Assembly: GCA_963775895.1 (NCBI GenBank)
Contig: CAVZKL010000014.1
Location: 1 to 55,659 of the forward strand
DNA: 55,659 nt
DNA from: Candidatus Bathyarchaeota archaeon
Lineage (GTDB): Archaea > Thermoproteota > Bathyarchaeia > Bathyarchaeales > Bathycorpusculaceae
Direction of reading: 5' to 3'
Of this stretch, positions 8,152 through 31,328 are shown in pieces (positions within the stretch are counted from its first letter, which is position 1; each line of letters opens with the position of its first letter). A program made the translations under genes and the position numbers. The notes below the pieces were generated by a model. The model worked only from the letters and a program-made list of their open reading frames with translations, did no database searches and was not told where the DNA came from.

Positions 8152-9184
8152 CTATTCGCGTTTGTTGAAGTAGGCGACGCCTATGGCTATGTCTTTCATG
8201 TTGCAGACGCCGTCGTTGTTGACGTCCGCATTGGGGTTCCAGTTGGGCGAGTCTGGTTTGGTGTTGAACACCGCGACCATGTAGGCTATGTCCTTCATGT
8301 TCACCACTCCGTCGTGGACTCCTGGCGTTGAGCTTGATACGTCGGCGGGGATGCCGACGTGGACAGGATTGCTGAGCACGTAGGTGTTGTCTCCTGGGTT
8401 CACTTCGCCTGGAACCGTGTCGGCAACTGCCGTCAGAGTGTAGTTACCGGTTGCCAGTCCTGTGGCGTTCAAGACGATCGTTATCACTGTTGAATCGCCG
8501 GGGTTCTGCGTGACGCTTGCGATGCCAACGGCGGTGGCGTTGGCGTAGAGTGCGACGTTGTAGGTTTCGGGGAAGCCGCCGTGATCTTCAGCTGTCACCG
8601 TGACGTTGCCTGAGTATCCTTGACCGATGATAGTCTTTAAGGAGACCATTCCTGTTATTGCGACGTCGTGAGCTCCTCCGGCAACTATCACTGTTCCGTT
8701 GATGATGTGTATAGTTGATTGGTTGAGGCGGGATTTTTTCGTCTCCGAGTTTTACGTCGGTGAGCGTCAGACTTGTCGTTCCTCCGCTCATGGCTTTGAA
8801 GGTTAAGAGTGAGTATTGCCCGCCGCCGTTCACCGCGGTCATCCCCAGCAGCGTTGAGTATGCTAGGACTCGTCCGTGTGTGCTGTTGTAGTTGTTTGTG
8901 ATGTTTGCGTTGAAGAATGTTCCACCGCCAGTCTTCAGGAAGGGGCCTTCAACCCCGTTGGAACAGTTTACGATGGATCTCAGATAGAACAGGGTCAGTT
9001 GCCATGACGTGAAGTTGACGATGAAGTATACGGTAACGTTTATGCTGAAAGTTTGTCCGCCGTTCACGTTTGTGGTCTGAGGATCTACTGCAACCGTAGC
9101 TGTGACGGCGGATGCCCTGTAAATTGGGAACGTTAACAGGAATAGGCACAAAAAGAGATATACTATGATGTGCGTTTTTTTCAA
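8152..9184 (-). CDS. Array gene G1: signal peptide - cohesin-like - CARDB/Ig-like - dockerin (class A); frameshift near 8710
   Basis: ORFs 8588..9184 and 8152..8691; GQTFSINVTV...SWQ...EGPFLKTGG; duplicated Ca-loop DGVVNMKDI...DVNNDGVCNMKDI. Confidence 0.85.
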
Positions 9185-9191
9185 TATTCCC

Positions 9192-9261
9192 CTTCTCCCT
9201 CTAATTTGCAGTTAGTTAAATGGGAAAGATGGTATTTAAGAGTTCAGGAATTAACTTCTAT
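9192..9261 (-). promoter_or_regulatory. Array promoter/leader motif, copy P1
   Basis: + strand CTTCTCCCTCTAATTTGCAG...TATTTAAG-AG-TTCAGGAA-TTAAC-TTCTAT. Confidence 0.85.
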
Positions 9262-9338
9262 TACAAACGGACAATCTTGCATGCAAGGTTCACGCCTAAA
9301 AAAGGTAGGATGGAGAATGGGAGTTCTCCGTTGCGTGT

Positions 9339-12000
9339 TTACTGTGGGGGCACGTAGGTGAAGAGGAAGTTGACTGCGATTATACGTAGATCGAACACGT
9401 CGATGACACCATTGTTGTCCAAATCGTACGTTGATGCGGTGGGCCAAAGTGCATCTCCGATTTTGACGCCGAAGTATATTGCTACCAAGCGCAGGTCAAA
9501 GAGATCAACAGTGCCGTCATTGTTCACGTCACCCTGTATGGGTGAGAACGTGTAGACAAAGTATGGTCCAACGTCTATCTGGTTTAAGCCACTTCTCACG
9601 TACCGCAAGTCTGGGCCCGCTGGATAGCTTACGTTAGCTCCTTGGATGAAGATTGCGTCGCTCAAGTCATTCACTGCTCCGCTCTTCCAAACATGGTAGA
9701 ACGTTGCTTCAAATCTGATGGATACGAGAGTTTGACTTCCGTTTATCGGTGCGCCTGAAGTGTATCCTGTGATTACTCCGCCTGCGACGTTGATGGTTCC
9801 TGAACCCCAAGCGTTCCACGTTACATTGAAGTATGTGAGCAGCGTTGCGTTGTAATGGATTTCGAAGGCAAAGTCCTCGACGTTGAGAGCGTTGGAGATG
9901 TTGATTGTCACCTTGAAGTTTTCGCTGTACATGCGACAAGTCCTGCTCGCTGGGTTCATTTGAAGCAGCGGTTTTTCCGTGAAGTGAGCCGTGACCGAGA
10001 TAGTTGCCAGTCATACTCATCGTAGCTGGGTTGGCTGAACCGGACAAGGCGCCGCTCCAATAGTGGAAAATCCAACCCAGATTCGCAGAGGGGGTCAGGG
10101 TGACAACGTCACCGTAGTTGTAGTAAGGTCCTACAGGACTAACGCCGACTGAACCTTGGCCGTCGACGCTGACCGTCAACGTGTACTTGTTTTGAATGAA
10201 GGTAGCAGTAACTGACATGTTGCCTGTCACAGTAACCATAGTGGGGTTAGCTGTGCCGGAAGCGTCACCGCCCCAGCTGCCAAAACTATAGCCAGGACTA
10301 GGAGTAGCATTCAGCGTGACGACGGTGCCGTACGTGTAGGTGGCTTGATTGGGATTCTTAGTGACCGAGCCGCTGCCGACAGGCGTGACAGTGACGATCA
10401 GAGTGTACTGGTCCTGAGTGAAAGTAGCATTGACGATCGTGTTGCCAATAATTGTCAATGTTGCAGGATTGGCGGAGCCAGACAAGGCTTCGCTCCAATG
10501 ATCGAAGGTCCAACCAAGGGTGGCAGTCGCTGTTAACTGAACAACGTCGCCATAGTGAAGAGACCCAGTGTTGTTCTTGCTTACAGAACCGCTGCCGACA
10601 GTGTTAATCGTTAGTGTGTACACGTTCTGAGTGAAAGTACCAGTAACAGCCATGTTACCACTGATAGCTAGCGTGGCAGGGCTAGAAGAACCGATTAGGC
10701 CGCCACTCCAGTGGTCGAAGCTCCACCCTATTGTGGGAACAGCCGTCAACTGGACAACGTCGCCATAGTGGTAAGGTCCGCTGTTGTTCAGGTTCACTGT
10801 ACCACTGCCAACGGGATCCACTGACACGGATAGAGTGTACGTGAGTTGAATGAAGGTGGCAGTAACATCCATGTTGCCGGTTATTGTCAAGTTATCTGGG
10901 TTGGTGGAGCCAATTAGATTGCCGCTCCAGTGATCGAAGGACCATCCAATGTTAGCAGTAGCCGTCAATTGAACGACGTCGCCATAATGAAGGACTCCGG
11001 TGTTGTTCTTGCTTACAGAACCGCTGCCGACAGTGTTAATCGTTAGTGTGTACACGTTCTGAGTGAAAGTGGCAGTTACAGCTTTGTTGCCGGTCATATT
11101 TACGGTAGTTGAGCTAGATGTGCCTAGGGCGTCTCCGCTCCAGCTGGCGAACGTCCAGCCTATGTTTGCGTTGGCAGTTAGGTTGACATCCGTGCCGTAA
11201 GTGTATGTGGATTGGTCAGGATCCTTGGTGACTGAGCCGCTGCCGACGGGTGTGACAGTGACGGTCAGAGTGTACTGGTTCTGAGTGAAAGCGGCATTTA
11301 CAGAGGTATCGCCGGTCATAACTAGAGTAGCAGGGTTAGCCGATCCTGTTACCCCGCCACTCCAGCTGGAAAAACTCCAGCCAATGACTGGGATGGCTGT
11401 CAACAAAACTGCTTCTCCATTGTGGTAGTAAGGTCCGGTGTTGTTCAGAATCACGGAGCCGCTGCCTGAAGTCGTAACTGTCAGAGTGAAGGCTTGAACA
11501 TACGCTGTGCCGTCGATCGTTGTGTGTGTAATTGGCAGAGGGGGTATGTTTTGATCTCCGAGTTTTGTATCGGTCAGGTGAAGGAGTGAATTGCCTACTA
11601 CAGTGGCGTTGAAGGTGATAGTCGCTAGCACGCCACTGCCGTTCACGTAAGTGTTTCCAAATAGTGTGGCGTAAGCTTGCACGCTCCCCTGAGTGCTGCT
11701 GTAATTGTTGTTTATGTTTTCGCCGAAATAAGTTCCGCCCCCGCTTTTCAGGAACGAACCTTCAGTGACACCCGTGCAGTTTAGGACGGTGTTGTTGAAG
11801 TATACTGTGAATTGCCAAGAAGTGAGATAGGCAACGTCAGTAACGTTTACATCCACGCTGAAGGTTTTGCCGATTGTTACGTAGGAATTTGTAGGGTTGA
11901 TAGCTATTGTTGTCGAAGCTGCAGATATTTTGAATATTGGTATGATCAGCATGAGAAGAATGAGCGTTATAGGTACTAGTACGTATCTTTTTGATTTCAA
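9339..12000 (-). CDS. Array gene G2: signal peptide - cohesin-like - 7 InlB B-repeat/Flg_new-like repeats - cohesin-like - dockerin (class B); frameshift near 10000
   Basis: ORFs 9709..12000 and 9339..9959; seven ~72-aa repeats YTLT...GSGSV...YG.VV.LTA...GW.F..WSG; GDVNNDGTVDLFDL...DLDNNGVIDVFDL. Confidence 0.87.
10568..11070. repeat. 71-bp identical direct repeat (10568-10638 and 11000-11070) between B-repeat units of G2
   Basis: Direct comparison, offset 432 bp. Confidence 0.85.
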
Positions 12001-12004
12001 TTTC

Positions 12005-12076
12005 CTTTCTCCCTCTAAATTTGCAGTTTAATAACAGCAGAGCGGTCTATTTAAGAATTCAGGAATTAACCTCTAT
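12005..12076 (-). promoter_or_regulatory. Array promoter/leader motif, copy P2
   Basis: CTTTCTCCCTCTAAATTTGCAG...TATTTAAG-AA-TTCAGGAA-TTAAC-CTCTAT. Confidence 0.85.
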
Positions 12077-12184
12077 AGTTGCTTCTTCAATGGTTGAGCT
12101 GATTGTATGAGTCAAAGAAAGCGAAGCAAGCCCTTCGAGCGCGAATGTCAACATGAACCTATATGATCTGTTTGCATATTCCCT

Positions 12185-15100
12185 TCATGATACATAGGTG
12201 TATCCGAAGTTTGAAGCAGCAGTCCTCAGATCGAAAACGTCAATGATTCCACTGCCATCCAAATCATAAGATGATGCGACTGCCCAGTTGGGGTCTCCTT
12301 GCTTGACCAAATAGTATATTGCGACCGTGCGAAGATCGAGGACGTCAACGGTTCCATCGTTGTTCACGTCGCCTCTTATCGGAGAGAAAGTGTAAGCGAG
12401 ACCTGGATTTATATTGATCTGATTGAGACCACCTTTCTCGTAGTCCAAGTCCGGACCAACTAGATAGCTTAGATTGGCTCCATTGAAGAATATGGTGTCA
12501 ACCAAATCATTCGTCCAACCTGCAACGCTCTTCCAGACGTGACGGTAAGCAGCCTTGAGACTAACTGTCATTAACGTCTGTGTTCCACTCATCGCGACTC
12601 CTGCAGTGAGACCGTCTATCACTCCTTCAGCCTCATTCACATTCATCGTTCCTGATCCCCAAGCGTTCCAGCTGACGTTCACGTAGTCGAGCAACGTGGT
12701 GTTGTAGTGGATTTCAAACGCGAAACCGGTGACGTTGTCGGTATCAGAAACGTTCACCGCTAGAGTGAAAATCTCGTCAATTGTACGACAGACTCTGACT
12801 GAAGGATCCATTTCAAGCGTTGGAGCTTCAACGTACATATAGCCACCATCCTGAGACAAGTGTGCTATGGGTTCTGCCTGGGAATCACTCATTTTGTGGA
12901 TTGCAAAGTGAATAGAGGTCTCCTCCGGAGGTGTGGGACCATTCACAGAGAGCTCTAGCGTGAAGAGGGTTTGGCTTTGAGTTGTGTTGAAGCTGCCTGA
13001 CGTAGAAAGTGCCACGAGTCTACAGTAGCCTGGACCGTTCTCGTTCTTCGCGAGGAACCATTTGCCCGAACCCCACAAGGCGTCCAACGTGTCATTGTAG
13101 TAACAGTTCTTGAACGTCAACAAAGCACTGTCCCACGTGATATTGAAATCAAACCCCGACAAGTCAATCACGTTCTCGATCGTAACATTCACTTTGAAGC
13201 TACTGCCCACTTCAAGAGAACTCTTCTTTGTTGCAGAAGGACTAACGTACAACGAGGTTTCGTTCGTCTGTTCATTTCCCATAATTGTCACGGGTTCGGG
13301 AGATGAGTATTTGCGGACTGCTACCCAAAGCGATTTTATCGTTGCCGTTCCAGAGTAGACTCTGAATTCAACAGGCATCGAACCGAGAGTCTGTGAGTGA
13401 GTGGCCGCCAAAGAGTCATCAATGTAGTACTTCTCCGCACCAGACACGTACGTTATGCTATACCAATGGTAAGAATCTAGAAAACTTTGACTTATAGAAG
13501 TCGATTGAGCGTTAGGATACGTATAGGCAGCGAATGAGCCCCCACCACCTCTCTCAAACAAAGTGAAGGGGCCAGTCATGTCAGATGCGCAGAAGCCGAT
13601 CCAGTGATTGGTGGATGTTTCGCTTCCGACGTACGCTTCTGTCTCGAGGGCATATCCACTCCCGAAGCTGCTCAGACTCGTAATGGAGCCCGTTGTATCC
13701 AATACCAAGGCTCCACTCTCAACCCTCGGTGAACCTCTTGTCGACCATTTGCCGGTATCCAAAACGTTAAAATCGTCGAAAAACTCAAAGGTGTTTGTTC
13801 CATTCGAAGTCGAACTGGCTTTATAGTTACCGTAGTACATCCAGATCCATTTCAAGCTCGAGGTTGGTATGCTTGGAACTTTGACCCAGAAAATTGCGGA
13901 ATCTGAAGCCGTATAGTTCTGAATCCAATACGAGATCAACGTTGTACCGTCCGAGTCTGCGAACCTCAGGTCAGAGAAGTCTGTTTTCATGTCCGAATCG
14001 TAAGCCACGTTAATCCTCACCTGATAATCAATCAATTCGGGCGGTGTCGAGGGATGAGCGTAGGGATCGAATTGTTCAGTGTACGGTAATGCGCCTGAGC
14101 CATCTCTTCCTGCTATAGCATAGAGCTTTCCATTCATAATTCCACAGTTATGGCCGTCCCTTGGATGACTTGCTGATGGCAGTATCTGCCAAGTATTTGT
14201 TCCGGGATCATATACGCATGCGTCAGTGTAAATAAAGAAGTCATTCCGTGCGAAATGTAGATCTTTCCGTCAAGCGCAGCGTTTTCTCTGGCTAAGCCCC
14301 ACCTACTGAAAGGCATCGACGCTTTCGTACTCCAGCTGTCACTCGCTACATCATAAGCTTCGTTAGTGCTCAAATACCCCCCTGCAGGACCTCCACCGCC
14401 TATGGCATAAAGGACTCCGTTAACCTCAGAGAGTGAGAAAAACCTTCTAGGAGTCGGCATAGGAGCCTTCGACGTGTCATATGAATCCGTCAAAGGATCA
14501 TAAACGGTGACGTTTCCTGACGTGTCTCCATCTCTCCACCCGCCCATTACGTAGATCTTTCCGTCGTATGCTATTGATGAGGCACTGTGCATACCCAAAG
14601 TGATTGGAAAGTCCGAGCCAACGGACCATGAATCCGTAACGGTGTCATAAATGTACAGGGTTTTGTAGCCATCCCAGTTGTTGGAGTTGTCTATTCCTCC
14701 CCAGATGTACGCTTTGGTGCCAACTGCGCAAGCGGTTGCTGCGTAGGAATGATTACTCGGCATACTGGCTTTCTGTGACCAAGTGTCTGCTAAGGGGTCG
14801 TAGACATAAGTTTCGTTACAAACGTTTGTAGGAGATCCTGGACCGTAGCCTCCGAAAAGGTACAGTTTGCCGTTCACAACGACACTTGACGCGTCAGCTC
14901 TGGCTGCAGGCATCAAGGCTTTGTCACTCCACACTCCGTTAGGATTGCCAACTGGAGGCGTGTTGTTGATCGCGATCGGCTTCCTCTCAGTCCAGTTCCG
15001 ATTGTACCAGTCTGCGCTAGGTGGCACCGGAGGCGGTGGGGGCGGCGGAGGTGGTAATTCTTGTATCGACACTTTGAACCTCACGTCCCAATTCCCTTCT

Positions 15101-16017
15101 CGGTGGCTATAGTAGTAATAGACGTAGTCGCCTAACAGGTGAGGGAAGCCACATGCATCGTCGTTGGGCAGTATCGGGCTGTTCGGGCATTCACAAGCGC
15201 CGTCAAAGCAATTTGGTCCAAGCAATTCGCTGTAGAAGGCTCGAACCACCCATAGGCTACTGGGATACGACTCTGTTGTTAAATAGTAGGTGTTGTTCCT
15301 GTGGAAGATTCCTGGAGCGGCCAAAACGCCCATAGAACCATCGGTGCGAAGAACGATGTGGGGCGCCGTTACAATGTCTGTAAGGTTACTGGCGTGGCGG
15401 GCTCCGATGCTGTTTCCATTCTCAGCCGTGAGAAGCCACCACTCACCGTCAATGGGGCTGTGCCAGAGGAATGGATCATGTTCGCCGTTGCCACTCGCCG
15501 CGAGTTCTTGTTCTGTAAAAGTGTATCCGTCACTCACGGGTGAAGTGGCTCGGTATACTCCGTCAAGTATTCCGCCGTGTATGTAGAACATGTTTATTGT
15601 GCCGTCTTGTACGCCCACGGTAGGCCAACCCCATCCATCTACCAACGGAGTGGCAGATGAATAGCGAGTCCAGTTTTCCAAGTCTTCCGAGAAAGCCAAT
15701 CCCACTGACGCATGATCTGCTGTTCCATAGTATCCCCAGTATCGATGACCATCCTTGTTCAATTCAAGGATGTCTAGGTTATGAGGACCACCTCGGACCG
15801 AGTCCCAATATGAAGTGTTGTAGTCGAGGGCGACTTTTTCTTCGCCGAGAGTTGGAAAAGAGGAGACTGGTGGCGCGCTTGCTACAGGAGTCGGGACAAA
15901 TGTTAGTGCAACCAGATTTACGAATAGAATTATGAGAATTGCTGAAGCGAAACAGATTTTTGAACTCTGCTTGAAGCTCTTTATCGTCTTGTTCAGAATC
16001 AGCCCTACTGGTGACAT
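12185..16017 (-). CDS. Array gene G3: signal peptide - 5-bladed beta-propeller glycosidase-like - poly-Pro - DUF2341 with inserted Kelch propeller - 2 cohesin-like - dockerin (class B); frameshift near 14220
   Basis: ORFs 14134..16017 and 12185..14137; VGLAFSEDLENWTRY, HDPFLW; Kelch GKLYLFGG...YDPLADTW; DFSDLRFADSDG; GDVNNDGTVDVLDL. Confidence 0.85.
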
Positions 16018-19128: not shown

Positions 19129-19133
19129 ATTGT

Positions 19134-19204
19134 CCTTTCTCCTTTAATTTGCAGTTAAATATGAATCAGAAAAGGTATATAAGATTTCAGGAACGCACTT
19201 CTAT
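19134..19204 (-). promoter_or_regulatory. Array promoter/leader motif, copy P4
   Basis: CCTTTCTCCTTTAATTTGCAG...TATATAAG-AT-TTCAGGAA-CGCAC-TTCTAT. Confidence 0.85.
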
Positions 19205-20960: not shown

Positions 20961-23900
20961 TTAGCTGAAGTTTGCGCCTATCAGTACGAGGTCGTAGATG
21001 TCGATTACTCCGTTGCCATTTAGGTCATATGCTGATGCTGCAGACCACAGTGGGTCACCCTGTTTGACATCGAAGTATGCGGCCACTGTTCTCAAGTCAG
21101 TGATGTCGACGATGCCGTCGTTGGTCAAGTCTCCTTGAATCGGCATGAATTTGAAAGCAACGTTGTTCACGCTGATCTGACCGAGCCCGCCTTCCTGGTA
21201 CACGAGTGGTTGAACCCCTACCCCTGAGAAGCTGAGGCTGGCACTGTGGAACCAGATTTGACCATCAAGCTCGTTGACTTGGCCTTGTTTCCATATCATC
21301 GTTGCAATGTCTTGGAACGTGATGTTCAGGAGCCAGCGGTTTCCGCTCATAGGAATTCCAGTTACATATCCTTCGAGTATGCCGTTCACAGGGTCGACAT
21401 TTGTGATTGTTCCTGAACCTAGTTCTCCCCATGAAACGCTTACGTAGCTCATCAATGTAGGACTGTAATATATCGTAAAGTTTAAGCCGTCCACAGTTAT
21501 TGCGTTGGTCACATTTACCTGCACTGTGAAGTGCTCGCCATATTTTCTACACGTTATCGTGTTCTGAGACATCTGAAGCTGGGGCTGATACGGCGGGCCG
21601 CCGTTAATGTTATATATTCTGCCGTGGCCGAAACCACTATCTCCAGTTCCGCCTAAGCTTTCAACTCCTACATACCAACAATCTAATGTGTTATCACTAT
21701 TGACAATGACGTTACCGTTGTCATCGACTTTGAAAGTCAGTCCTCCTGCTTCGCCCCCTTCCCAAGTACCTGCTGTGCCAATTGGAAGTATTGGATTGTA
21801 TGGAGAGAAGGTCAAGTTTGTCCAGTCTCCAACGCGGCAATATGCGACACCGTCTTCTTTGTAGTTGCCCGTCAAAGTCAAGTACATGGAACCGCCGTAT
21901 ATGTACGTGTAAAGCGGAGTGAGCAACGAGCTATACCAACCTGAACCTTGTGGGACAAGTATGTTTTTCTGCATATACGTCCAAGTCAACCCGTCCGGAG
22001 AACTTAGACAACTCACGGTTGTAGGGCCAATGTACCCTATCCAGAACGTGGAGTTGACCCGCGCACATGAAAACTCGTTGGCGCCTGAGACTATTGGATT
22101 TCCTGAATATCGGGTTACGTTTCCTACAGTGTAGCCACCACTCCCATCGGGCGCAATATCAAGAAATGCCAGACCTACCGACCCAGATTGGTAGTAAACC
22201 CAATAGGTTCCATTAATTTTGATATGGGTGGTTGTCCAGCATACCTCTGAGCTTTCCCATGTGCTTGGCAAAGGAGACAGTACTGGATTTCCGGCATATT
22301 TGGTCCAGTTGAGGCCGTTGGTGCTCCAAGCAAATCCGGCTCGTCTTTGTCCTATTGGGGCCCCATTGTAGAGCATAAAGTAAGTGCCAAAGTCGTGGTC
22401 AAACCATATGCATTCGTCGTAGACCCAGCCTTTTTCCCAAGGTTGCGTCGCCACAAAATCTGTGCGGACACGATCAGCCACGCCACCCGTGAAGTTGATT
22501 ACTACTTCGACGGACCACTCATGCTTCCCCGTCAATCCAAGCGCGCTCGCCGAAGCTGTAACGTTAAATACTCCAAGATTGCTGAAGGTGCAGTTCCATG
22601 AAGCAGTCTGTAGGTTGTAATCAACCTGCTGTTGCAAGCCGTTCATGTACCAAGTTATATCTGCCGGAATTATGTAAGACACCTGAAACGTTTGCTGACT
22701 TCCGCGATCGAGCGTTACCAGTGCCGCAGGTGATGCACTAGTAACCTCCAAATCTGACATCGTTTTGAAACTGAACGTCTGGTTGTTCCATATTCCAAAC
22801 AAGGGGTCTATCGCACACACCTGCCACGTGTAAGTAGTGTTAAGCTGGAGACCACTGACACCAACAGAATATGCACCATTATACACACCTAGACCCTGAC
22901 CCGAACCGATATTCGGACTCGTAGTAACATAGTAGTTCATCGAGTCGTTCAGATAGTCCGTCAAATCAAAGCTAAGCACAGACAACGAGGGACCAACCGT
23001 TGCGCCGATTGCTGGTGACAGGTTTGAGATGCTTGGAAATTTGAGCGAGAAGGTTTCTTCAGACGCAACGGTGTAGAAGGATGAAGGCGACTGCTGATTG
23101 TTGTACTCCGTTGACAACCATGACGCGCTCCTAACTATGTTTGAAATTCGCACCTCATCAACTGCACCGTTCCAAAATCGACTATAACCACTAAGATATC
23201 TTGCACCTATCACTCCATGATTAGGATCGTCGCTAGAAAACCAGCTTGGCACGCTACTACTCAAGGTTTGCGCTGCACCATTAAGATAAAAGGCAATATT
23301 ATTCGCGGCAGTTACCGCGTCGCACCAATACGCCCACGTTCCAGCAGTCAAATAGGTACTAACGCCCGTTAAGCCATAATGGTACAGAGAGTTTCCAATG
23401 AGTATTTCGTTGTCAGTGGCGAATATCCCCATACCAACTCCGCTTCCACCCGAATCTGTCTGTCCAAAACTAACAATCGGACTGCTTTGGTTGAGCGTGG
23501 TTGGATTTGCCCAACATTCGATAGTATAAGGCGGTGACAGCACAAAGGGAATAGTAGCATAGGAGCTTGAACCGTCGAAGCCCGCAGCACCATCAATCTT
23601 CCCACTCACATTCTGACTGACCCCACCATATGGCGTGCAATTGTAGTGGTATCCAGTCGAATCAATGAATGTTCCAGTAGCCTGCTCCAGATGCTGCACC
23701 ATAAGATAGTTTGAATCCCACGTACCTGCACTGTTCTGCTGATTAGAAGCGGAGGGGTTCCCATAATACATGTACAAAACAGTATCACTCACCGAGGACA
23801 GAGTAGGAACGTTAACCCAGGCGACCAACCTGCCGGCGCCATTATCATAGAATTCTATTTCATGATTGAGTTTGTTGCCGTAAGTATCAGCAAAGACAAT

Positions 23901-25460
23901 GTCGTTGCCGCTGACTTGAGCCTTATTCGCCAAATCTAGATCCGTAGTATCTATCAAAACTGTGAAGTTTGCTAGACTTCCGGTGACTTTCGCGTGGTCA
24001 ATTATTATTGCTTTTCTGTAAGGCCAGTCGATGTTCCACCAGTTTCCATAAAATTCTATAGTTTTGAAACTGAACGTCTGGTTGTTCCATATTCCAAACA
24101 AGGGGTCTATCGCACACACCTGCCACGTGTAAGTAGTGTTAAGCTGGAGACCACTGACACCAACAGAATATGCACCATTATACACACCTAGACCCTGACC
24201 CGAACCGATATTCGGACTCGTAGTAACATAGTAGTTCATCGAGTCGTTCAGATAGTCCGTCAAATCAAAGCTAAGCACAGACAACGAGGTGGACACCCGC
24301 GTTGCGCCGTTCAATGGCGACGGGTTTGAAATTGTCAGAGTCGCAAATGCTTCCTCAGACCCAACGGTGTAGAAGGATGAAGGCGACTGCTGATTGTTGT
24401 ACTCCGTTGACAACCATGACGCGCTCCTTACGATGTTTGAAATTCGCACCTCATCAACTGCACCGTTCCAAAATCGACTATAACTGGTAGAATGTCTTGC
24501 ACCTATCACCCTGTAATTGGCGTCGTTAGAGTAATAGCTGTTCGGGCTAGAACTCAGGGTTTGCGCTGCACCGTTAAGATAAAAGGCAATATTATTCGCG
24601 GCAGTTACCGCGTCGCACCAATACGCCCACGTTCCAGCAGTCAAATGGGTACTAACGCCTGATAAGGCATATTGGTACGCATAGTTTCCAACGGCTAGCG
24701 CGTTCTTAGTGTTGTATATGCCCATACTAACTCCGCTTCCGCCTGAATCTGTCTGCTGAAAACTGACAATAGCGTTATCTTGTGTGAGCGTCACAGGGTT
24801 TGCCCAACATTCAATAGTATAGGGCGGTGACAAGCCAAATGGAATAGTGGCATAAGAGCTTGAACCATCGAAACCAGCAGCACCATCAATCTCTCCAGTA
24901 ACATTATGGCTGACCCCGCCATTTGGCGCGCAGTCATTGTGGTTCCCAGTCGAATCAATAAACGATCCAGTAGCCTGCCCGAGATGCTGCACCATAACAT
25001 AATTCGAATCCCACGTACCAGCAACATTCTGCTGATTAGAAGCGCTTGGATTTCCGTAATACATGTAGAGGATCGTGTCTGCAGTCGAAGAGAGACTCGG
25101 CACCTTCACCCACGCAACCAAATAACCAGTCGGTGAATTGAATAGCTCTATCTCATGATTCAGCTTGTTCCCAGAATAATCGGCAAAGGCAATGTCGTTG
25201 CCACTCGATTGTGCATGAGATGAGAGACTGGAATCCGTAATATTGATCAGAATAGGAAAATTAGTGAGATTTGCCGAAACCTTCGTATGATCGATCATTA
25301 TGTTCTTCCGATACTGCCAATTGGAATCCCACCACACTCCACCCCCCTTAGCAAAATAGGGATTGAAGGCAACAGCAAAAAAACAGATGAGCAAAAGACA
25401 AGTTATCGTCAGAACAGAGAATTTCTTGGATTTCGTTCTAGACAAGCACATAATCCCCAA
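20961..25460 (-). CDS. Array gene G6 (1499 aa): signal peptide - 2x[DUF2341 - LamG/ConA-like - FN3/Ig-like] - Ig - 5-bladed glycosidase-like propeller - cohesin-like - dockerin (class B)
   Basis: WQYRKNIMIDHTKV, FWNGAVDEVRISNIVRS twice; GFAWSTNGLNWTKYAGNPVL; GDLTNDGIVDITDL...DLNGNGVIDIYDL. Confidence 0.9.
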   Translation of the reverse strand: MGIMCLSRTKSKKFSVLTITCLLLICFFAVAFNPYFAKGGGVWWDSNWQYRKNIMIDHTKVSANLTNFPILINITDSSLSSHAQSSGNDIAFADYSGNKLNHEIELFNSPTGYLVAWVKVPSLSSTADTILYMYYGNPSASNQQNVAGTWDSNYVMVQHLGQATGSFIDSTGNHNDCAPNGGVSHNVTGEIDGAAGFDGSSSYATIPFGLSPPYTIECWANPVTLTQDNAIVSFQQTDSGGSGVSMGIYNTKNALAVGNYAYQYALSGVSTHLTAGTWAYWCDAVTAANNIAFYLNGAAQTLSSSPNSYYSNDANYRVIGARHSTSYSRFWNGAVDEVRISNIVRSASWLSTEYNNQQSPSSFYTVGSEEAFATLTISNPSPLNGATRVSTSLSVLSFDLTDYLNDSMNYYVTTSPNIGSGQGLGVYNGAYSVGVSGLQLNTTYTWQVCAIDPLFGIWNNQTFSFKTIEFYGNWWNIDWPYRKAIIIDHAKVTGSLANFTVLIDTTDLDLANKAQVSGNDIVFADTYGNKLNHEIEFYDNGAGRLVAWVNVPTLSSVSDTVLYMYYGNPSASNQQNSAGTWDSNYLMVQHLEQATGTFIDSTGYHYNCTPYGGVSQNVSGKIDGAAGFDGSSSYATIPFVLSPPYTIECWANPTTLNQSSPIVSFGQTDSGGSGVGMGIFATDNEILIGNSLYHYGLTGVSTYLTAGTWAYWCDAVTAANNIAFYLNGAAQTLSSSVPSWFSSDDPNHGVIGARYLSGYSRFWNGAVDEVRISNIVRSASWLSTEYNNQQSPSSFYTVASEETFSLKFPSISNLSPAIGATVGPSLSVLSFDLTDYLNDSMNYYVTTSPNIGSGQGLGVYNGAYSVGVSGLQLNTTYTWQVCAIDPLFGIWNNQTFSFKTMSDLEVTSASPAALVTLDRGSQQTFQVSYIIPADITWYMNGLQQQVDYNLQTASWNCTFSNLGVFNVTASASALGLTGKHEWSVEVVINFTGGVADRVRTDFVATQPWEKGWVYDECIWFDHDFGTYFMLYNGAPIGQRRAGFAWSTNGLNWTKYAGNPVLSPLPSTWESSEVCWTTTHIKINGTYWVYYQSGSVGLAFLDIAPDGSGGYTVGNVTRYSGNPIVSGANEFSCARVNSTFWIGYIGPTTVSCLSSPDGLTWTYMQKNILVPQGSGWYSSLLTPLYTYIYGGSMYLTLTGNYKEDGVAYCRVGDWTNLTFSPYNPILPIGTAGTWEGGEAGGLTFKVDDNGNVIVNSDNTLDCWYVGVESLGGTGDSGFGHGRIYNINGGPPYQPQLQMSQNTITCRKYGEHFTVQVNVTNAITVDGLNFTIYYSPTLMSYVSVSWGELGSGTITNVDPVNGILEGYVTGIPMSGNRWLLNITFQDIATMIWKQGQVNELDGQIWFHSASLSFSGVGVQPLVYQEGGLGQISVNNVAFKFMPIQGDLTNDGIVDITDLRTVAAYFDVKQGDPLWSAASAYDLNGNGVIDIYDLVLIGANFS
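22762..24289. repeat. 229-bp apparently identical direct repeat (22762-22990 and 24061-24289) inside a ~1.3-kb tandem duplication in G6
   Basis: Direct comparison, offset 1299 bp; second near-identical block at about 23066-23185 and 24362-24481. Confidence 0.9.
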
Positions 25461-26094: not shown

Positions 26095-28913
26095 CTAGTC
26101 ATGCTGGTTGAAATAGAATACGGCTATGGCTATGTCTCTTATGTTGCAGACATCGTCGCTATTGATGTCCGCGTTGGGATTCCAGTTAGATGAGCTCGGT
26201 TTACTGTTGAACAACGACACCAAGTAAGCGACATCCCTCATGTTCACAAGGCCATCCGGGACTCCAGGAGTGATGCTGGACACGTCTCCGGGCACGCCGA
26301 TCCTGATGTTTTGACAGCATCCTGTGTTGTCGTCCAAGTCCGATTCGTTTGGCACCGCGTCCAAAACGGCTGTGAGGGTGTAGTTGCCGTAGCTGAATCC
26401 ATCGGCATTCCACGTGAAAGTCACCACGGTTTGCTGCCCGCTTAAGAAGCCGATCAGTTGAAATGAAGCGTTGGGAATCGGGTTTTGATTGGCATAGATG
26501 GTCAAGTTGGATATCTCATCGTAATCGCCTTCATCGTTCATAGTCACGGTTACAAGGGTTAAGTATCCCTTTCCCACGATAGGCTTCGAGCGGCTGACCG
26601 CGGTCACGCTGATGTCATCATGAGTCCCAACACTCGGTCCGAGATGCACCGATGCCTCCGATGAAGTTGTTGTCAAACAAGTACGTTTCGTTGGGAACTG
26701 GAATTGCGTAAGCAGATATGGTGTAGTAGCCTTCACCGCAATTGTCGGTAAACCATACGCACTGATAACTCGTTATCTGCCACGGAGGAAGTGCGACGAT
26801 GTTCAGCGTTGCAATCGGAATGCCATTAGCACGAACGGTGACGTTGCAATCCTGAGCCGCATAATATTCATTATAAGCAGAGACCGTGATTTTCACGGAA
26901 TGTCCGACGTACGTGTCGGACGTCGACGTTGTCACGTTGACAATGCCAACATTGGGCTGAGGAGCCCGTATAGTGAAATTGGAAACAAATTCGGGTGAAG
27001 CCCGTCCGCCGATAAATTCCCGTGCACAGGTGTAAACCGTCGCAGGTCCTGGGTAAGTATTCATAGGGATTTGCCCCGCGTTGAAGATGACAACGGTTTG
27101 ATTTGGCTGGACATAATATGCTCGAGATACGGTAGGTCTAAGAGTTGCAGGTTAACATCCTGAACAGTTACACTCACTTCAGCAACAGTTGGAAATATAC
27201 GATTATTCGTGATGGTCACGATTAGACGCAACGGTTCGCCCAAGTCAAAGTAATTTTTCGGTACACCGTTTATATCGCATGGAACCGCTGATGTCACTTG
27301 AACGAGCCAGTTTATGCCAAACTCACATACGTCCGACACCGTTTTTGTTCCGATGGTTACACTAGCGTTAACGCTATATTCTCCAAAATCGGGCAAAGCA
27401 TAAACAAGGAAAGTGAAGTACGCAATTCCGTTGCTAAAGGTTTGGGTAGCTCTGCGTATCCTCAGGGTTCCGTTTGGATAGTAAACGTTGAAGGTGACCA
27501 CTTTGCCAGCCACTGGAACGAGATCGTAAGTTGCATACGCGTATATGATGATCAATTCTTCTGGTGCGAAAGTGTCGCTGGGCTGGTTCAACCCATTTCC
27601 ACCTTTTTGAGTGTAAACGTCAATGGATGGACCCACCGGGAGTGCAATTACTGTCACGATCTTGGAGAATGAGCCAGTCAGGTTATTGTCATCTGTCACC
27701 ACGAGAGTCACGTTAAATGATCCGGGATTTGAGAAGGCGTGGTTGAGAATCATTCCTTGTCCGTGGAAACCGTCACCGAAGGTCCAGTTGTAGTTCACGA
27801 TAATGCCGTGGAGGTTGTTCGCGGTTGAACTTGAGGCATCAAAAGTTATTGAGTCATTCACGTATGGCAAACCTGGTGACCAGGTGAAGTACGCTGTGGG
27901 CGGTTTAGGAATTCCAGGAAGTAATTCAAAGAAACCTGGCTGAACGTTCGCCGATATTTGGGCGTTGTTTGCGTCGAGAAGCAAGACGTTTTGAAGAGCA
28001 ATTGATGAAGAACCTGTGTCCTTGACCCTGAAGGTGACATAAGCCAGAGTGCCACTTCCGTTTGCACCGATATTAGTGGCCAAATGTGCGCCGTAGGGAG
28101 TTATCACACCAGCGTTGTTATCAATGGTGCCTGGCTGCCACACAGTGGTTCCGGCACTTGCCAGAAACGGGCCCTCAGTGTAGTTGATGCATTCAAGAAC
28201 GTTGGGGTTGAAGGATACGCCTGCTTGCCAATAGTTCAGGTTAAGGATAGTAACTAGGCGCACAAGTAATGGTTATGTTGACTGTGAATGTTCCGTTTAT
28301 TGGAATCCATTCTGGTGGCCCGGAAAGGTTAGCTGGTGAAACAAATACGTCATACACGTCTGGTGGAGGAGCCGTCACTTGGACAGTTCCGTCTGAATCT
28401 GTGTGCGGAATTGGCTGTCGGAGGAATCTTCTCGTCGGCCAACTTCGTCTGAGTAAAATGAAGAGTTGTGTTTCCCTCACCTATGGCTTGAAACGTCACC
28501 TGAGCCAAGAGCCCATTTCCGTCAACCCAAACACCTACACCCAAAAGAGCACATGCCGCAAACACAAAACCAGTAGTGGAATTGTACGTGTTGTTCAGCG
28601 ATACGGTGAAAAATGTTGAACCACCAGAGTTCAAAAATGATCCTTCAGAAACTCCTGTGGCGCTTAGCACATCGTTGCGGTAGTAGAGCCCGAACTGCCA
28701 ACCCGTACAGTTCACTACGTCCGCGATCGTGATGTTAACCAGAAAAGTCTGACGCTGCGAAACAACATAGGTAGTGGGGGCAACTGCTATCGTCGTGGAT
28801 TGTGCGATGCCTCTTAATGGTGCGAGTTCGAACAGAAGCACAAAAACTAAAAAGACGCAGAAGCAAGCTTTACTCAGAAACTTGCTCGATAGTATTGCCT
28901 TATGAAACGTCAA
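26095..28913 (-). CDS. Array gene G7: signal peptide - 2 cohesin-like - PKD - Ig-like - CARDB-like x2 - dockerin (class A); several frameshifts
   Basis: Fragments 28350..28913, 28241..28480, 27061..28263, 26618..27064 and 26095..26736; PKD YNWTFGDG...GSFNVTLVVTD; DGLVNMRDV...DINSDDVCNIRDI. Confidence 0.8.
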
Positions 28914-29215: not shown

Positions 29216-29878
29216 TCAAGCGTTCTTCGTTGATGATCTCTCTTTTTGCAGACCTGAACCTATGCCCGGTGGCAGTTCGGGCAGTTTTTCGTTGATTCTC
29301 TGTTCGGCAACGGTTGCTGCCTCATTCAATATCTTGCTCGCATCCTCATTCAAAGCGTTGAAATTCAGAGTCATCCCAGAACTCTGCCCAGCATCGAACA
29401 TCACGCCGTTCAGCATGTTAGCGATCTCGCCGATCTCGTTCTCAGCCTCAGGAAGAACCCCCACAAGCCCCGTTCTGATAGAACCCAGAACTCCTATCAC
29501 CGGTCCGAGCGTAGACACAACGTCTCCTAGCTCCGACACTGTGCGCAGTCTAAGCAGCACCTGATCGAGCGCCAACCTCGCGTTCATCACCAGCTTCTCA
29601 ACCTTACGAACCTCCGCCAACTCGTTCGCATACACGTTCGCGTGTGCAGTGTCATGCTTCGTGTAAGAATCAACCACCTTCGCAAAAAGCGTCCTATCCT
29701 TCTGCCCGAACCTTTCCGAAGCCTGATCCAACCTCTGAACCTGAAGCTCGATACGCCTCACCGCAACGTCCAAACGAGGCTTCAACGCCCCCTCAGGCCT
29801 AACAGCACTTTTAACACGACTCGGAAAACGCTGCTCTTCTCGACTGGCTTCCCACTTCTTACCAAACCTCTCGGACAA
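29216..29878 (-). CDS. cdvB: ESCRT-III/Snf7 family protein (CdvB paralogue)
   Basis: GALKPRL...YANELAEVRK...LRLRTVSELGDVVSTLGP...ILNEAATVAE...LPELP resembles TACK CdvB-type proteins; TTG start 29878 behind GAGGT. Confidence 0.88.
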   Translation of the reverse strand: MSERFGKKWEASREEQRFPSRVKSAVRPEGALKPRLDVAVRRIELQVQRLDQASERFGQKDRTLFAKVVDSYTKHDTAHANVYANELAEVRKVEKLVMNARLALDQVLLRLRTVSELGDVVSTLGPVIGVLGSIRTGLVGVLPEAENEIGEIANMLNGVMFDAGQSSGMTLNFNALNEDASKILNEAATVAEQRINEKLPELPPGIGSGLQKERSSTKNA

Positions 29879-30052
29879 ACCCACAACCTCAAACCAGAAA
29901 GCTGCCCGCTGCACTCTTATGCGTTGCTAACATGCAGAAAACATGCTCAGATATATGCCCACTCAGACCACACTGGCTCACGCCACCTTGCCCACAAAGC
30001 CCAACAGAAAACCTCAAAACCTAACCGTCCAAGTGAACGCTTCCAAATCGCC

Positions 30053-30148
30053 CGCGCATATTTGGATCCTAATATTCATGATACATCGAAACCGAGGTGG
30101 ATAGGGCACACGATGGCTAAAAAAACAGCCACTAAAGAAACCTTCAAC
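30053..30148 (+). repeat. ~90-bp dispersed element, copy 1 (most diverged in its 3' half)
   Basis: Core GCATATTTGGATCCTAATATTCATGATACATCGAAAC. Confidence 0.9.
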
Positions 30149-30281
30149 GACTAAACCGAGACGAGAAGACAATGTGAGACGTGGCTGTAGAACTGTTATA
30201 GAACCTTGTTTCAAAACATAGATAACAATCGGATACAATATTGCTTCTGAACATTCTCGGGAGAACGGAGGAGGTGATTCC

Positions 30282-31328
30282 ATAAACAAGAAAGATCTGA
30301 TCCTTGTTGTCCTGGCAACCTTCTGTCTGACAGCCACGATATTCATGATACTGCCATCGAGGAGCACAGGACTTTACGACCCATGGAACGACGTCTACCC
30401 AATAGAACCCGACGGCGTAATCAACATGAAAGACATCGCATGGGAAATAGCGAGCTTCAACGCCAAAGCAACGGACAACACAACCGCGAGCACAACAAGG
30501 AAAGTCGCAGTAGACACTTACTCATGGAACGTCTCCAGTTACACCATGAACATGGCACCTCACTCCCTCAACAACCTCAACATATCCACCGCGGGCTACC
30601 AACACGTGTCCCTCATACTAAACGCAAGCTACCTGCTGAACCCCGTGGGCGTCAGAACCGGATTCCTCCTCAACAACGGCTACGCCGGCGTAGACACCTT
30701 CAACGTGGGACCACCTCCTACCTCATCCTCCGGAAATTCACCAAACGCCATGTGGATTCAAGCCCCGAAAACAACAGGAAACGTCGGAGAAAAGTTCAAC
30801 GTCACAGTCTGGGTGTACCTCAAAGATGACAGCGTCTCCTGGCAAGCGGCAGTCAGGTACCCTGCCGGCACACTGAACCTCACAAGAATCGGCTACACCG
30901 CCGGAAACGAAAGCGACTGGGCAACACATCAAAACCCACCCGGCGGAGCCACAACACCCGCAGGACCAGTATCAACGCCCGGATACGTCATCCTCGGAGA
31001 AGCCTTAGCCACCAACGAGCGCGTCCCCGGAATCGTCTACGCAAGCCTCTTCTGGATTGAATTTCAAACATTGACCCCTTCATTCGAAACCAAACTCGAA
31101 CTAGCCAACGTAGGAACAGACACCTTCATCGTGGCCCCAGACCTCAGCCCCCTGCAGTTCACAGCATCAAACATCGACTGGACATACTACCACCTGATCA
31201 ACGCGTTCGAAGCAGAGAAATCCTACCAGATCGCAGGACCAATCCTCACCATCGAATCCGCCAACCCAAACGACTTCAACGTCACACTCAGCATCCAAGC
31301 ATACTTAACAACAGCACCAGGAAACTAA
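30282..31328 (+). CDS. G8: N-terminal hydrophobic signal/anchor - single dockerin-like Ca-loop - beta domain with cohesin-like segment
   Basis: In-frame ATA at 30282 behind GGAGGAGGTGA gives (M)NKKDLILVVLATFCLTATIFMILPSRS; YDPWND...DGVINMKDI; VGEKFNVTVWV...SWQ. Confidence 0.75.
   Translation: MNKKDLILVVLATFCLTATIFMILPSRSTGLYDPWNDVYPIEPDGVINMKDIAWEIASFNAKATDNTTASTTRKVAVDTYSWNVSSYTMNMAPHSLNNLNISTAGYQHVSLILNASYLLNPVGVRTGFLLNNGYAGVDTFNVGPPPTSSSGNSPNAMWIQAPKTTGNVGEKFNVTVWVYLKDDSVSWQAAVRYPAGTLNLTRIGYTAGNESDWATHQNPPGGATTPAGPVSTPGYVILGEALATNERVPGIVYASLFWIEFQTLTPSFETKLELANVGTDTFIVAPDLSPLQFTASNIDWTYYHLINAFEAEKSYQIAGPILTIESANPNDFNVTLSIQAYLTTAPGN

Follow-up and report, generated by a model that had tools for sequence, protein, structure and literature searches.

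Seven genes arranged in tandem in the genome of a Candidatus Bathyarchaeota archaeon encode proteins that each carry one or two cohesins and a dockerin at the C-terminus. Our analysis suggests, with a probability of roughly 60%, that this is a real tandem cluster and the cohesin-rich hub of a genome-wide, non-cellulosomal network, and that the frameshifts in it are mostly artefacts. The cluster is located in a stretch of 55,659 nucleotides of contig CAVZKL010000014.1 (assembly GCA_963775895.1), referred to here as the window.

The genes, A to G, are all encoded in the same direction and an additional gene, G8, is on the opposite strand, as a preliminary description of this DNA had stated (Table 1). 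All seven N-termini, inspected by eye, begin with basic residues that lead into a hydrophobic, signal-like segment. This is consistent with the signal peptides proposed earlier, and suggests that the A–G proteins are exported. All seven chains end directly after the dockerin, again judged by eye, and have no transmembrane tail, which agrees with the proposed absence of a C-terminal anchor. In A, B and D–G, cargo, cohesin and dockerin are found together on one putatively secreted chain, and gene C has no cargo. Genes D and E are paralogous, and the N-terminal domain of E is missing from D. Just upstream of the starts of G, F and D, a 78-nt stretch is conserved in three copies with 65–72% identity to the reference copy. 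It carries a TATA-like box rich in A and T and a ribosome-binding stretch rich in purines, and may be a shared promoter and leader. An Rfam scan of the window gave no match.

Table 1. Positions and module order of the cluster genes, their modules and G8 in the window.
Feature	Position	Strand	Size and frame	Order or content
Cluster A–G	28913–8155	minus, co-oriented	seven genes	each with cohesin(s) and dockerin
Gene A	26098–28913	minus	~930 aa bridged; 5 frame pieces, 4 breaks	signal-like N-terminus, class I cohesin, second cohesin, PKD, 2 CARDB, class ii dockerin
A, class I cohesin	28380–28799	minus		
A, second cohesin	~27955–28400	minus		
A, class ii dockerin	26098–26307	minus		
Gene B	20964–25460	minus	1499 aa; unbroken	signal-like N-terminus, 2 x (DUF2341 + Laminin_G_3), weak GH130-like region, class II cohesin, class i dockerin
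B, cassette	20964–21620	minus		class II cohesin, class i dockerin
Gene C	19589–20804	minus	~400 aa; 4 pieces, 3 breaks	cassette alone: signal-like N-terminus, class III cohesin, divergent class II cohesin, class i dockerin
Gene D	16155–19075	minus	~975 aa; 7 pieces, 6 breaks	signal-like N-terminus, Kelch propeller, DUF2341, lectin-like region, class III and class II cohesins, class i dockerin
Gene E	12188–16017	minus	~1270 aa; 2 pieces, 1 break near 14230	signal-like N-terminus, weak GH43-like domain, proline-rich linker, Kelch, DUF2341, lectin-like region, class III cohesin, class II cohesin, class i dockerin
E, cassette	12188–13282	minus		
Gene F	9342–12000	minus	~885 aa; 1 break near 9943–9999	signal-like N-terminus, class I cohesin, 7 Flg_new_2 repeats, class II cohesin, class i dockerin
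F, class I cohesin	11446–11919	minus		
F, class II cohesin and class i dockerin	9342–9980	minus		
Gene G	8155–9184	minus	~345 aa; 1 break near 8703–8708	signal-like N-terminus, class I cohesin, CARDB-like Ig domain, class ii dockerin
G, class I cohesin	8711–9106	minus		
G, class ii dockerin	8155–8364	minus		
78-nt stretch, G	9184–9261	minus		
78-nt stretch, F	11999–12076	minus		
78-nt stretch, D	19127–19204	minus		
G8	30285–31328	plus	347 aa read from frame opening at 30285	N-terminal transmembrane/signal-anchor-like segment, one dockerin repeat, divergent cohesin-like C-terminal domain

Pfam matches and the fold both identify the modules as genuine cohesins and dockerins. Matches to Cohesin (PF00963, cut-off 24.1 bits) above the cut-off are found in E (58.6 bits), D (42.3), C (32.1), A (26.9) and B (24.5), with a further one in F, in its N-terminal module (37.5). 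The class II cohesin of F alone scores 16.6 bits, under the cut-off, and the N-terminal class I modules of A and G had no Pfam match when searched alone. The latter two are 42–50% identical to the N-terminal module of F (BLASTP), and the three sub-threshold modules share 42–56% identity with Pfam-positive paralogues. Matches to Dockerin_1 (PF00404, cut-off 22.9 bits) are above the cut-off in G (29.3 bits), F (28.5), B (27.2) and E (25.8). The dockerin of A scores 21.7 bits in one search and 24.0 in a six-frame search. The dockerins of C and D are cut by frameshifts and have no whole-module scores; both repeats are directly legible in each. The dockerin profile matches a solved dockerin, 2Y3N_B, with an E value of 4.7e-6.

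An all-against-all BLASTP comparison of 20 modules divided the cohesins into three classes. Class I is N-terminal and is present on A, F and G. Classes III and II and the class i dockerin make up a C-terminal cassette, in which the dockerin is always fused behind the class II cohesin. Class II is the most divergent, with partial Pfam coverage (positions 13–101 of 139, 16–29 bits). The class i dockerin contains two canonical repeats of a Ca-binding loop and a helix (D-x-N/D-x-D/N-G ... D). The class ii dockerin, present on A and G, always follows a CARDB-like Ig domain. This CARDB and dockerin tail is near-identical on at least nine proteins of the genome, mostly on cohesin-less cargo, and nine full-length class ii dockerins in the genome score at least 121 bits. 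Loop 2 in this class is canonical, whereas loop 1 has a 6-residue insertion and is not a canonical DxNxDG loop. The duplicated DxNxDG dockerin assigned earlier to all seven proteins is thus correct in that each has two repeats, and needs to be amended for the atypical first loop in A and G. The conserved loop residues suggest that the dockerins are Ca-dependent.

The fold was analyzed by modelling the E cassette in AlphaFold2. The model, based on an alignment of 65 rows, has a pLDDT of 95 and a pTM of 0.77, and contains two cohesin folds. It supersedes an earlier model with a 7-row alignment, which had a pLDDT of 62 and was confident in the dockerin part alone. The best Foldseek matches are cohesin dyads and cohesins, including 3L8Q (E 1e-15), the cohesin dyad of Acetivibrio cellulolyticus ScaA. 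In VIA-align, residues 5–152 gave Z scores of 16.3 to 6KGD_A and 16.1 to 2XDH, the solved Archaeoglobus fulgidus cohesin, and residues 152–301 gave 15.2 to 2VO8 and 3UL4_A. The two modelled cohesins superpose on solved cohesins with an rmsd of 1.9–2.9 over 127–137 residues. The PF00963 matches and this fold bear out the earlier view that the beta-sandwiches are cohesins.

The order of modules in the cassette is the same as in the C-terminal cohesin-X-dockerin segment of C. thermocellum CipA, and 3KCP and 4FL4, structures of that segment, are among the top structural matches. The similarity would fit a simple surface display, in which the dockerins attach the proteins singly to an anchor (G8-type or S-layer) and the cassette cohesins are a stalk or X-module-like support and not receptors. 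The pTM value, which suggests a fixed packing between domains, and the divergence of the class II cohesin point in the same direction. So do glycosyltransferases and an S-layer-like protein (S_layer_C, 33.5 bits) encoded 1–7 kb beyond G8. However, both cassette domains superpose on dockerin-binding cohesins with Z scores of 15–16, which argues against X-modules or plain Ig domains. Across all three modules the rmsd to 3KCP and 4FL4 is 11.5–11.7, indicating that the arrangement in the E cassette is different. In addition, no membrane anchor with a Pfam-confirmed cohesin was found among the ORFs inspected. We consider such a display quite improbable.

Analysis of the whole genome revealed a larger set of these modules, consistent with the hub reading. 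Cohesin matches number 14 in the genome, with nine of them on this contig, and there are 22 dockerin matches, spread over 12 contigs, in three cohesin classes and two dockerin classes. Dockerin-only proteins encoded elsewhere carry peptidase-like, beta-helix, PQQ-like propeller and ABC substrate-binding cargo, the last on contigs C18 and C19. One protein (C3) has three cohesins, CARDB and a dockerin, compared to a maximum of two cohesins per protein in the window, and another is cohesin-only. The earlier proposal of a scaffoldin-free system, in which every subunit is both plug and socket, is valid inside the window. It does not extend to the genome: the network is not scaffoldin-free, because dockerin-only cargo proteins and the three-cohesin protein are encoded. 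The presence of dockerin-only and cohesin-only proteins also indicates that the whole system is hierarchical and not uniform.

The same proteins bear on whether A–G build literal head-to-tail polymers, with dockerins inserting into cohesins of their own class and branching at two-cohesin subunits, to produce a free, scaffoldin-less, Ca-dependent mesh. Cohesin and dockerin are combined in every cluster protein, none of which has an anchor at the C-terminus, and the conservation of the C-terminal cassette on more than 100 protein clusters has the look of a universal self-association tag. There is also a precedent. Passages of PMC4611034 describe Ruminococcus bromii Amy4, a secreted protein with cargo, one cohesin and a C-terminal dockerin, in which the cohesin binds its own dockerin, and cite similar pairs in A. 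fulgidus. By analogy, self-polymerisation of A–G is plausible. Against the mesh, many proteins in the genome are dockerin-only and one is cohesin-only. The dockerin of the E cassette follows the last cohesin strand with hardly any linker in the secondary structure of the model, which may constrain the geometry. The mesh would also require each dockerin to recognise cohesins of its own protein's class. A complex prediction for two copies of the 365-residue E cassette, based on the alignment of 65 rows, gave a score of 0.00 (mark 0.42), which speaks neither for nor against pairing. Strict class I cohesins and strict class ii dockerins are both strong in this genome and in G005 alone, and G007 (65% complete) has the class ii dockerin and not the class I cohesin. 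No partners are inferred from this co-occurrence, because the genomes are few and closely related. On balance the mesh is unlikely, and the hierarchical network with the cluster as its hub is the preferred reading.

The cargo domains suggested that this network is different from a cellulosome. Kelch, DUF2341, Laminin_G_3, Flg_new_2 (seven InlB-type B-repeats), PKD and CARDB were confirmed in a Pfam search, in agreement with the Kelch, DUF2341/LamG, B-repeat and PKD cargo described earlier. The ‘glycosidase-like propellers’ of that description are less secure: the GH43 match scores 19 bits compared to a cut-off of 32.2, and the match to a GH130 phosphorylase in the PDB has an E value of 1e-4 over 67 residues. 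A PDB sequence search with the N-terminal domain of E returned chance-level MHC matches alone (E ≥0.017). No glycoside hydrolase family passes its cut-off in a Pfam search of the seven cluster proteins, and no cellulose-binding module family was reported for these and the three-cohesin protein. No C-terminal membrane segment was found among the cohesin-bearing ORFs inspected, and no SLH or sortase anchor in this system. With no convincing glycoside hydrolase or cellulose-binding module among the matches, the A–G system is not a cellulosome, and the label ‘cellulosome-like’ is not backed.

G8 has the single N-terminal loop described earlier. Its one dockerin repeat resembles repeat 1 of the class ii dockerin and does not constitute a full dockerin. 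Over 141 aa, the C-terminal domain shares 28% identity with a Pfam-positive cohesin encoded at another locus of this genome (40 bits, E 9e-8); this pairwise match and a language-model lead suggest that it is cohesin-like. A Pfam search with this domain gave no match, and a profile-profile comparison between the G8 family and the cassette alignment gave no meaningful match (probability 0.5%). The codon at the position of the start Met in homologues is ATA, and the first canonical start, ATG at 30345, is inside the hydrophobic segment. G8 belongs to a family of membrane-anchored, single-repeat ‘half-dockerin’ proteins. Single EF-hands pair up, and the half-dockerins of this family might pair in the same manner into a complete dockerin, or present a cohesin, and so tether to the cell a coat or matrix that one order of Bathyarchaeia would build from dozens of different cargo proteins, with the cassette as a lineage-wide self-association tag. 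This seems decidedly unlikely. If it is true, it would represent an archaeal surface-assembly principle apart from S-layers and cellulosomes.

The cluster is interrupted by 16 breaks in six of the seven genes, with B intact. Their density, 16 in ~21 kb, is far above that in the other genes of the window, which are mostly full-length Pfam matches, and the sites are not homopolymers. These two properties suggest that there may be real inactivation, at least of D with its six breaks. A decaying locus, a pseudogene graveyard in this strain with no present function, would also account for the domain that D lacks compared to its paralogue and for the absence of a canonical start ahead of the membrane segment in G8. 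However, environmental contigs and relatives argue against decay. Among the 12 of 64 indels listed, which cover the junctions of G and F and two of the four in A, the environmental contigs have 1-nt deletions at 26653 and 28247/28250 in A, inside two of its junctions, a 1-nt deletion at 9999 in F, and +1 at 8706 and −2 at 8715 in G. Among those listed, related environmental contigs are without the window’s indels at all four junctions. The contigs spanning C and D have 1–9 gaps each. At 26653, a minority of the contig depth in run X1 (~5.5 of 29.3) matches the window, and since this minority agrees with it, the broken form may occur in nature.

Relatives of this genome carry intact counterparts. 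The counterpart of A (936 aa, G005:C1) has two class I cohesins and a class ii dockerin. A syntenic Candidatus Bathyarchaeota contig (L011) has intact counterparts of C (398 aa), F (878 aa) and G (343 aa) and the same flank of M29 peptidase, DsbH and rubrerythrin, so the synteny in relatives that the preliminary description had put forward as a check is present in part. F and G also have open frames in G005, of 902 and 353 aa, respectively. A 977-aa protein, P0047, aligns over its full length with D at 62–66% identity, and reads through the Kelch-DUF2341 junction where E breaks. The frames of A–G are otherwise clean: apart from the single-base shifts, they have accumulated no in-frame stops or deletions. 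A housekeeping synthetase gene is likewise split in this genome, which points to assembly quality. A genome-wide scan for frameshift-like ORF pairs gave 341 candidates and was dropped, as ordinary operon neighbours satisfy its rule. Given the environmental-contig indels at several sites and the unbroken counterparts, some of them syntenic, artefacts of assembly or strain are the probable cause of the breaks, and decay of the locus is extremely improbable.

Outside this genome, cohesin is present in 24 of 31 related genomes, this one counted, and in nine of ten of the same genus. The cassette is common to 129 proteins at E ≤1e-5, with varied cargo Pfams, and to 118 representative metagenomic clusters at E ≤1e-30; in nearly all of the matches listed it is located at the extreme C-terminus. 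A scan of genome contigs with one peptide pattern found two loci, and says little on distribution. Our literature search found no paper on cohesin or dockerin in Bathyarchaeia: both words occur together in ten papers, in none of them in the title or abstract.

Cohesin-dockerin networks outside cellulosomes, including proteins with both modules and self-binding proteins, are already documented. The background given in the preliminary description was incomplete in this respect. It left out ANME archaea, for which passages of PMC9012536 report proteins with a dockerin and up to five cohesins, and the self-binding of Amy4 (PMC4611034). Parts of PMC9012536 and PMC5244752 also describe archaeal CARDB and carbohydrate-binding-type domains with these modules, and dockerins on ABC substrate-binding proteins. 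The present system resembles those of A. fulgidus and ANME in that it is archaeal, non-cellulolytic and has both modules in one polypeptide. In superposition, the first of the two E-cassette cohesins matches that of A. fulgidus, and CARDB and dockerin-bearing ABC substrate-binding proteins are shared with these archaeal systems. Unlike these systems, it is in a different phylum, and reuses a fixed C-terminal cohesin-(cohesin)-dockerin cassette on over 100 architectures of cargo. It also has a membrane-anchored half-dockerin family and a second class of dockerin in which the first loop is atypical.

Amy4 is similar to the cluster proteins in the combination of cargo, cohesin and C-terminal dockerin on one chain, and is proposed in the sections of PMC4611034 that deal with it to multimerise and to recruit other dockerin-bearing proteins. 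Its self-binding has been measured, whereas A–G are known here from sequence and models. In addition, its cargo is a proven GH13 amylase and that of the cluster is mostly binding-type domains, and Amy4 is single in its genome whereas the cluster has seven such genes in tandem and more elsewhere. The adaptor scaffoldins ScaA and CipA, the best structural matches of the E cassette, also have cohesins and a dockerin on one chain, which permits hierarchical assembly. Compared to them, proteins here have at most 2–3 cohesins, and no cellulose-binding module, SLH or sortase anchor, or glycoside hydrolase at family cut-off was found.

These data are consistent with a model in which the proteins of the window are adaptor or mini-scaffoldin subunits. 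In this model, cohesins and dockerins would pair among these modules. The dockerins, once exported, would insert into cohesins of other subunits, so that the window proteins would bind one another and also recruit the dockerin-only cargo encoded elsewhere. The product would be cell-associated hetero-oligomers for adhesion and polymer capture, with the membrane-anchored G8 as a candidate tether.

The lineage, the fixed cassette and the half-dockerin anchor family are new, and the kind of system is not. For protein engineering, the modules are a candidate source of orthogonal cohesin-dockerin pairs from archaea. The Bathyarchaeia are sediment archaea that are abundant and uncultured, and to our knowledge no mechanism for their polymer capture and cell-cell contact has been described. 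A docking cassette on more than 100 cargo architectures is a concrete, testable handle on their cell-surface organisation.

The window is contig C14 in full (55.7 kb) of a source genome of 1.77 Mb in 28 contigs (completeness 88.8%, contamination 3.5%). Seven of its genes, named A to G in transcription order, had been described preliminarily as a co-oriented array carrying both cohesin and dockerin in each gene and as a candidate for head-to-tail polymerisation into a scaffoldin-free, cellulosome-like mesh. The architecture was borne out in all seven (see table); the two labels were not. Signal-like N-termini were judged by eye from the translated sequences, and the same inspection found no C-terminal hydrophobic tail in A to G. 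B is the only intact gene among the seven, a single unbroken ORF of 1499 aa. A 78-nt upstream element is common to G, F and D.

Coordinates and layout of the features (window positions unless another contig is named; environmental indels are relative to the window)
Feature	Position	Strand	Description
Cluster A-G	28913 to 8155	minus	seven co-oriented genes
A		minus	signal-like N-terminus, cohesin, cohesin, PKD, CARDB x2, dockerin (Pfam, frames bridged)
B		minus	signal-like N-terminus, (DUF2341 + Laminin_G_3) x2, weak GH130-like region, cohesin, dockerin (Pfam)
C		minus	signal-like N-terminus, cohesin, cohesin, dockerin (Pfam, frames bridged)
D		minus	signal-like N-terminus, Kelch, DUF2341, lectin-like region, cohesin, cohesin, dockerin (Pfam, frames bridged)
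E		minus	D-like order plus weak GH43-like domain at N-terminus (Pfam, frames bridged)
F		minus	signal-like N-terminus, cohesin, seven Flg_new_2 repeats, cohesin, dockerin (Pfam, frames bridged)
G		minus	signal-like N-terminus, cohesin, CARDB-like domain, dockerin (Pfam, frames bridged)
Environmental indels, G	8706 +1; 8715 -2		metagenome contigs
Environmental indel, F	9999 -1		metagenome contigs
Environmental indel, A	26653 -1		all four runs
Environmental indel, A	28247/28250 -1		metagenome contigs
Junction breaks, E and D	14225-14245, 18195-18215	minus	each within about 10 nt of one spot
Coiled-coil-type ORF	29216-29914	minus	232 aa, between A and G8
Dispersed element	30059-30133, 31381-31455, 39752 (minus strand)		about 75 nt
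G8	from 30285	plus	basic stretch, hydrophobic segment, one dockerin repeat, then beta-rich domains
G8 start region	30285-30345	plus	ATA where most homologues that include the N-terminus have the start Met (MNKKDL...)
Cell-envelope genes	within 32375-38643	minus	just past G8: GT2, GT2, GT4/GT1; 447-aa ORF with no Pfam match; 651-aa protein with two S-layer-like halves (S_layer_C, 33.5 bits, Pfam)
Pyr_redox_2 gene	49204-50211	plus	covers profile positions 95-289 only
Split synthetase gene	G000:C22:24099-26079	minus	open frames of 430 and 576 aa
Half-dockerins	C18:34821-35054, C3:615-851, C17:120262-120570, C20:34372-34464		single dockerin repeat
Cassette on contig titled as bacterial	L012:1699-2316		54% identity

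Pfam searches placed cohesin (PF00963) above cut-off in A, B, C, D, E and the N-terminal module of F, and Dockerin_1 in B, E, F and G, with A borderline. The proposed cohesin β-sandwiches do model as such in the E cassette, which comprises two C-terminal cohesins and the dockerin of gene E. Its AlphaFold2 model has a pLDDT of 95 and a pTM of 0.77 (65-row alignment). The best PDB matches by Foldseek are the A. cellulolyticus ScaA cohesin dyad 3L8Q (E 1e-15) and the CipA segments 3KCP and 4FL4. In VIA-align, residues 5-152 match CaCohA2 (Z 16.3) and the A. fulgidus cohesin 2XDH (Z 16.1), and residues 152-301 match 2VO8 and 3UL4_A (Z 15.2) and type II cohesins (Z about 14).

BLASTP among 20 modules revealed three cohesin classes. 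Class I is found at the N-termini of A, F and G (42-50% identity). B, D, E and F carry a class II cohesin immediately ahead of the dockerin (38-56%), and a distant copy is found in C. Class III, located ahead of class II in C, D and E, also occurs in a protein on contig C27 (37-60%). The dockerins fall into two classes, with Ca-loop residues conserved. In class i, borne by B to F, both loops are canonical and a class II cohesin always comes directly before, almost without a linker. Class ii, borne by A and G, is preceded by a CARDB-like domain, and 6 residues are inserted in its first loop.

The modules extend well beyond the cluster. Profile searches found 14 cohesin matches in the source genome, 9 of them on C14, and 22 dockerin matches across 12 contigs. 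At least nine proteins end in a nearly identical tail of CARDB and class ii dockerin (≥121 bits). By sequence reading, their cargo resembles large peptidase/β-helix proteins, a NosD-type β-helix, a PQQ-like propeller, a C39-like peptidase and ABC substrate-binding proteins; among the cohesin or dockerin proteins outside the window, Pfam covered those on C27, C3, C13, C20 and C10. One C3 protein combines three cohesins with CARDB and a dockerin, and the C27 protein joins NosD/β-helix to a cohesin without a dockerin. With these three kinds of protein counted, the network is hierarchical and A-G is where its cohesins concentrate, so the description as a closed, scaffoldin-free set does not hold. 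The cellulosome-like label also fails, as the GH43- and GH130-like matches are weak and no glycoside hydrolase exceeds the Pfam cut-off in A-G.

G8, a separate plus-strand gene beyond A, agrees in outline with its preliminary description (opposite strand, single N-terminal loop). The repeat matches repeat 1 of the class ii dockerin. This N-terminal anchor plus single repeat is common to 14 relatives, whose C-termini are variable. The C-terminal domain is only tentatively a cohesin: residues 167-296 align with the first of the C3 protein's Pfam-positive cohesins (28% identity over 141 aa; 40 bits, pairwise E 9e-8), and neither Pfam nor profile-profile comparison gave a match for the domain. As a lead only, G8 adjoins ‘Cohesin/Dockerin’ clusters at 0.92 in a protein atlas. 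The G8 frame is open upstream of its listed ATG at 30345, which lies within the hydrophobic segment and has no canonical in-frame start ahead of it. The ATA codon is 5-7 nt downstream of a GGAGGTGA stretch. Here the start may be non-canonical, the base may be an error, or the protein may be truncated. With four further ORFs that carry the single repeat of G8, the half-dockerins are a small family within the source genome.

Two copies of a highly conserved dispersed element flank G8, and another is upstream of a dockerin gene on C2. There are 36 copies in the genome (30-nt core, ≤4 mismatches), 33 of them on other contigs. The element combines an AT-rich box with a strong purine-rich stretch; beyond these, copies have an ATG-led short frame or else a version in which a T-run takes the place of an A-run between short inverted arms. 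It has no Rfam match; candidate readings are a shared promoter/leader, a small mobile element and a small RNA. The 232-aa ORF resembles Snf7/ESCRT-III only faintly (13.4 bits where the cut-off is 27.3, E 0.061) and is outside the cohesin-dockerin set. The genes past G8 are a cell-envelope neighbourhood.

Single-base shifts split six genes (4 breaks in A, 3 in C, 6 in D and 1 each in E, F and G; 16 in total), and homopolymers are absent from the break sites. Contigs from four wetland/freshwater-sediment metagenome runs were aligned to the window at ≥90% identity. Among the 12 of 64 indels listed, indels fall exactly inside break junctions; at 26653 one run has a minority contig agreeing with the window. 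Contigs spanning C and D have 1-9 gaps each. Synteny was found in a contig titled Candidatus Bathyarchaeota archaeon (L011), where the counterparts of C, F and G are single ORFs of 398, 878 and 343 aa. In the related genome G005, A, F and G correspond to open frames of 936, 902 and 353 aa. An intact 977-aa relative (P0047) aligns with D end to end (62-66% identity) and is unbroken across the Kelch-to-DUF2341 junction, where D and E are both broken. At this junction D and E seem to carry distinct single-base changes, a few bases from each other and directly ahead of a shared GCATGC-containing stretch. This context may be prone to consensus errors, such as those from a modified motif in long reads. 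Elsewhere in the source genome, RpoB and two long class-I aminoacyl-tRNA synthetase genes are whole, but a third such synthetase gene is divided between two frames. Together with the partial Pyr_redox_2 gene, this split indicates assembly breaks or truncations beyond the locus too. Most remaining window genes have full-length Pfam matches, and the excess of breaks at the A-G locus relative to them is real. Since environmental indels coincide with junctions, counterparts are intact and a synthetase gene is split, errors of a strain-mixed assembly are a more likely cause than gene decay.

Cohesin is present in 24 of 31 related genomes, the source genome included, and in 9 of 10 of the same genus, with a maximum of 28 per genome. 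In an even sample of the class (E≤1e-7), 19 of 121 genomes have it: 15 of 29 in families labelled as the same order, compared to 3 of 91 in the rest. A search with the E cassette found 129 proteins at E≤1e-5 (candidates of 381-1215 aa), with cargo including DUF2341, Laminin_G_3, Flg_new_2, Beta_helix/NosD, GH43, GH130, Metallophos, PKD, Kelch and F5/8 type C. Few matches carry names; one is annotated as a Bathyarchaeia PKD protein. A profile of class II cohesin plus dockerin matched 118 representative clusters at E≤1e-30 and 482 at E≤1e-10, at the extreme C-terminus in nearly all rows listed, in proteins of up to 2463 aa. The same cassette is found on a 20226-base contig titled as a Candidatus Acidiferrales bacterium, which points to a mis-binned archaeal contig or to transfer.

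Non-cellulosomal cohesins and dockerins are established in all three domains of life (Peer et al., 2009, as cited in PMC9012536, PMC5244752). ANME archaea have domain counts of up to 80 cohesins and 149 dockerins (PMC5244752, Table 2), single proteins with a dockerin and up to five cohesins, and dockerins attached to ABC binding proteins (PMC9012536). In R. bromii Amy4, a single protein unites cargo with a cohesin and a dockerin, and it binds its own dockerin; its authors noted similar pairs in other microbes, A. fulgidus included (PMC4611034). Of ten papers found to mention both Bathyarchaeia and dockerin, none does so in title or abstract. New here are the order-level cohesin-dockerin expansion in Bathyarchaeia, the fixed C-terminal cohesin-dockerin cassette and the half-dockerin family with a membrane anchor.

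We propose that the A-G proteins would be exported and their dockerins would then dock into cohesins of other chains. The proteins would then act as adaptors that connect to one another and gather, on or close to the cell surface, cargo bearing only a dockerin. The analysis itself shows secretion-type N-termini (by eye), true modules, conserved Ca-loop residues, conserved classes and synteny, and the 78-nt element upstream of G, F and D. Because binding-type domains dominate the cargo, adhesion or polymer capture fits better than hydrolysis.
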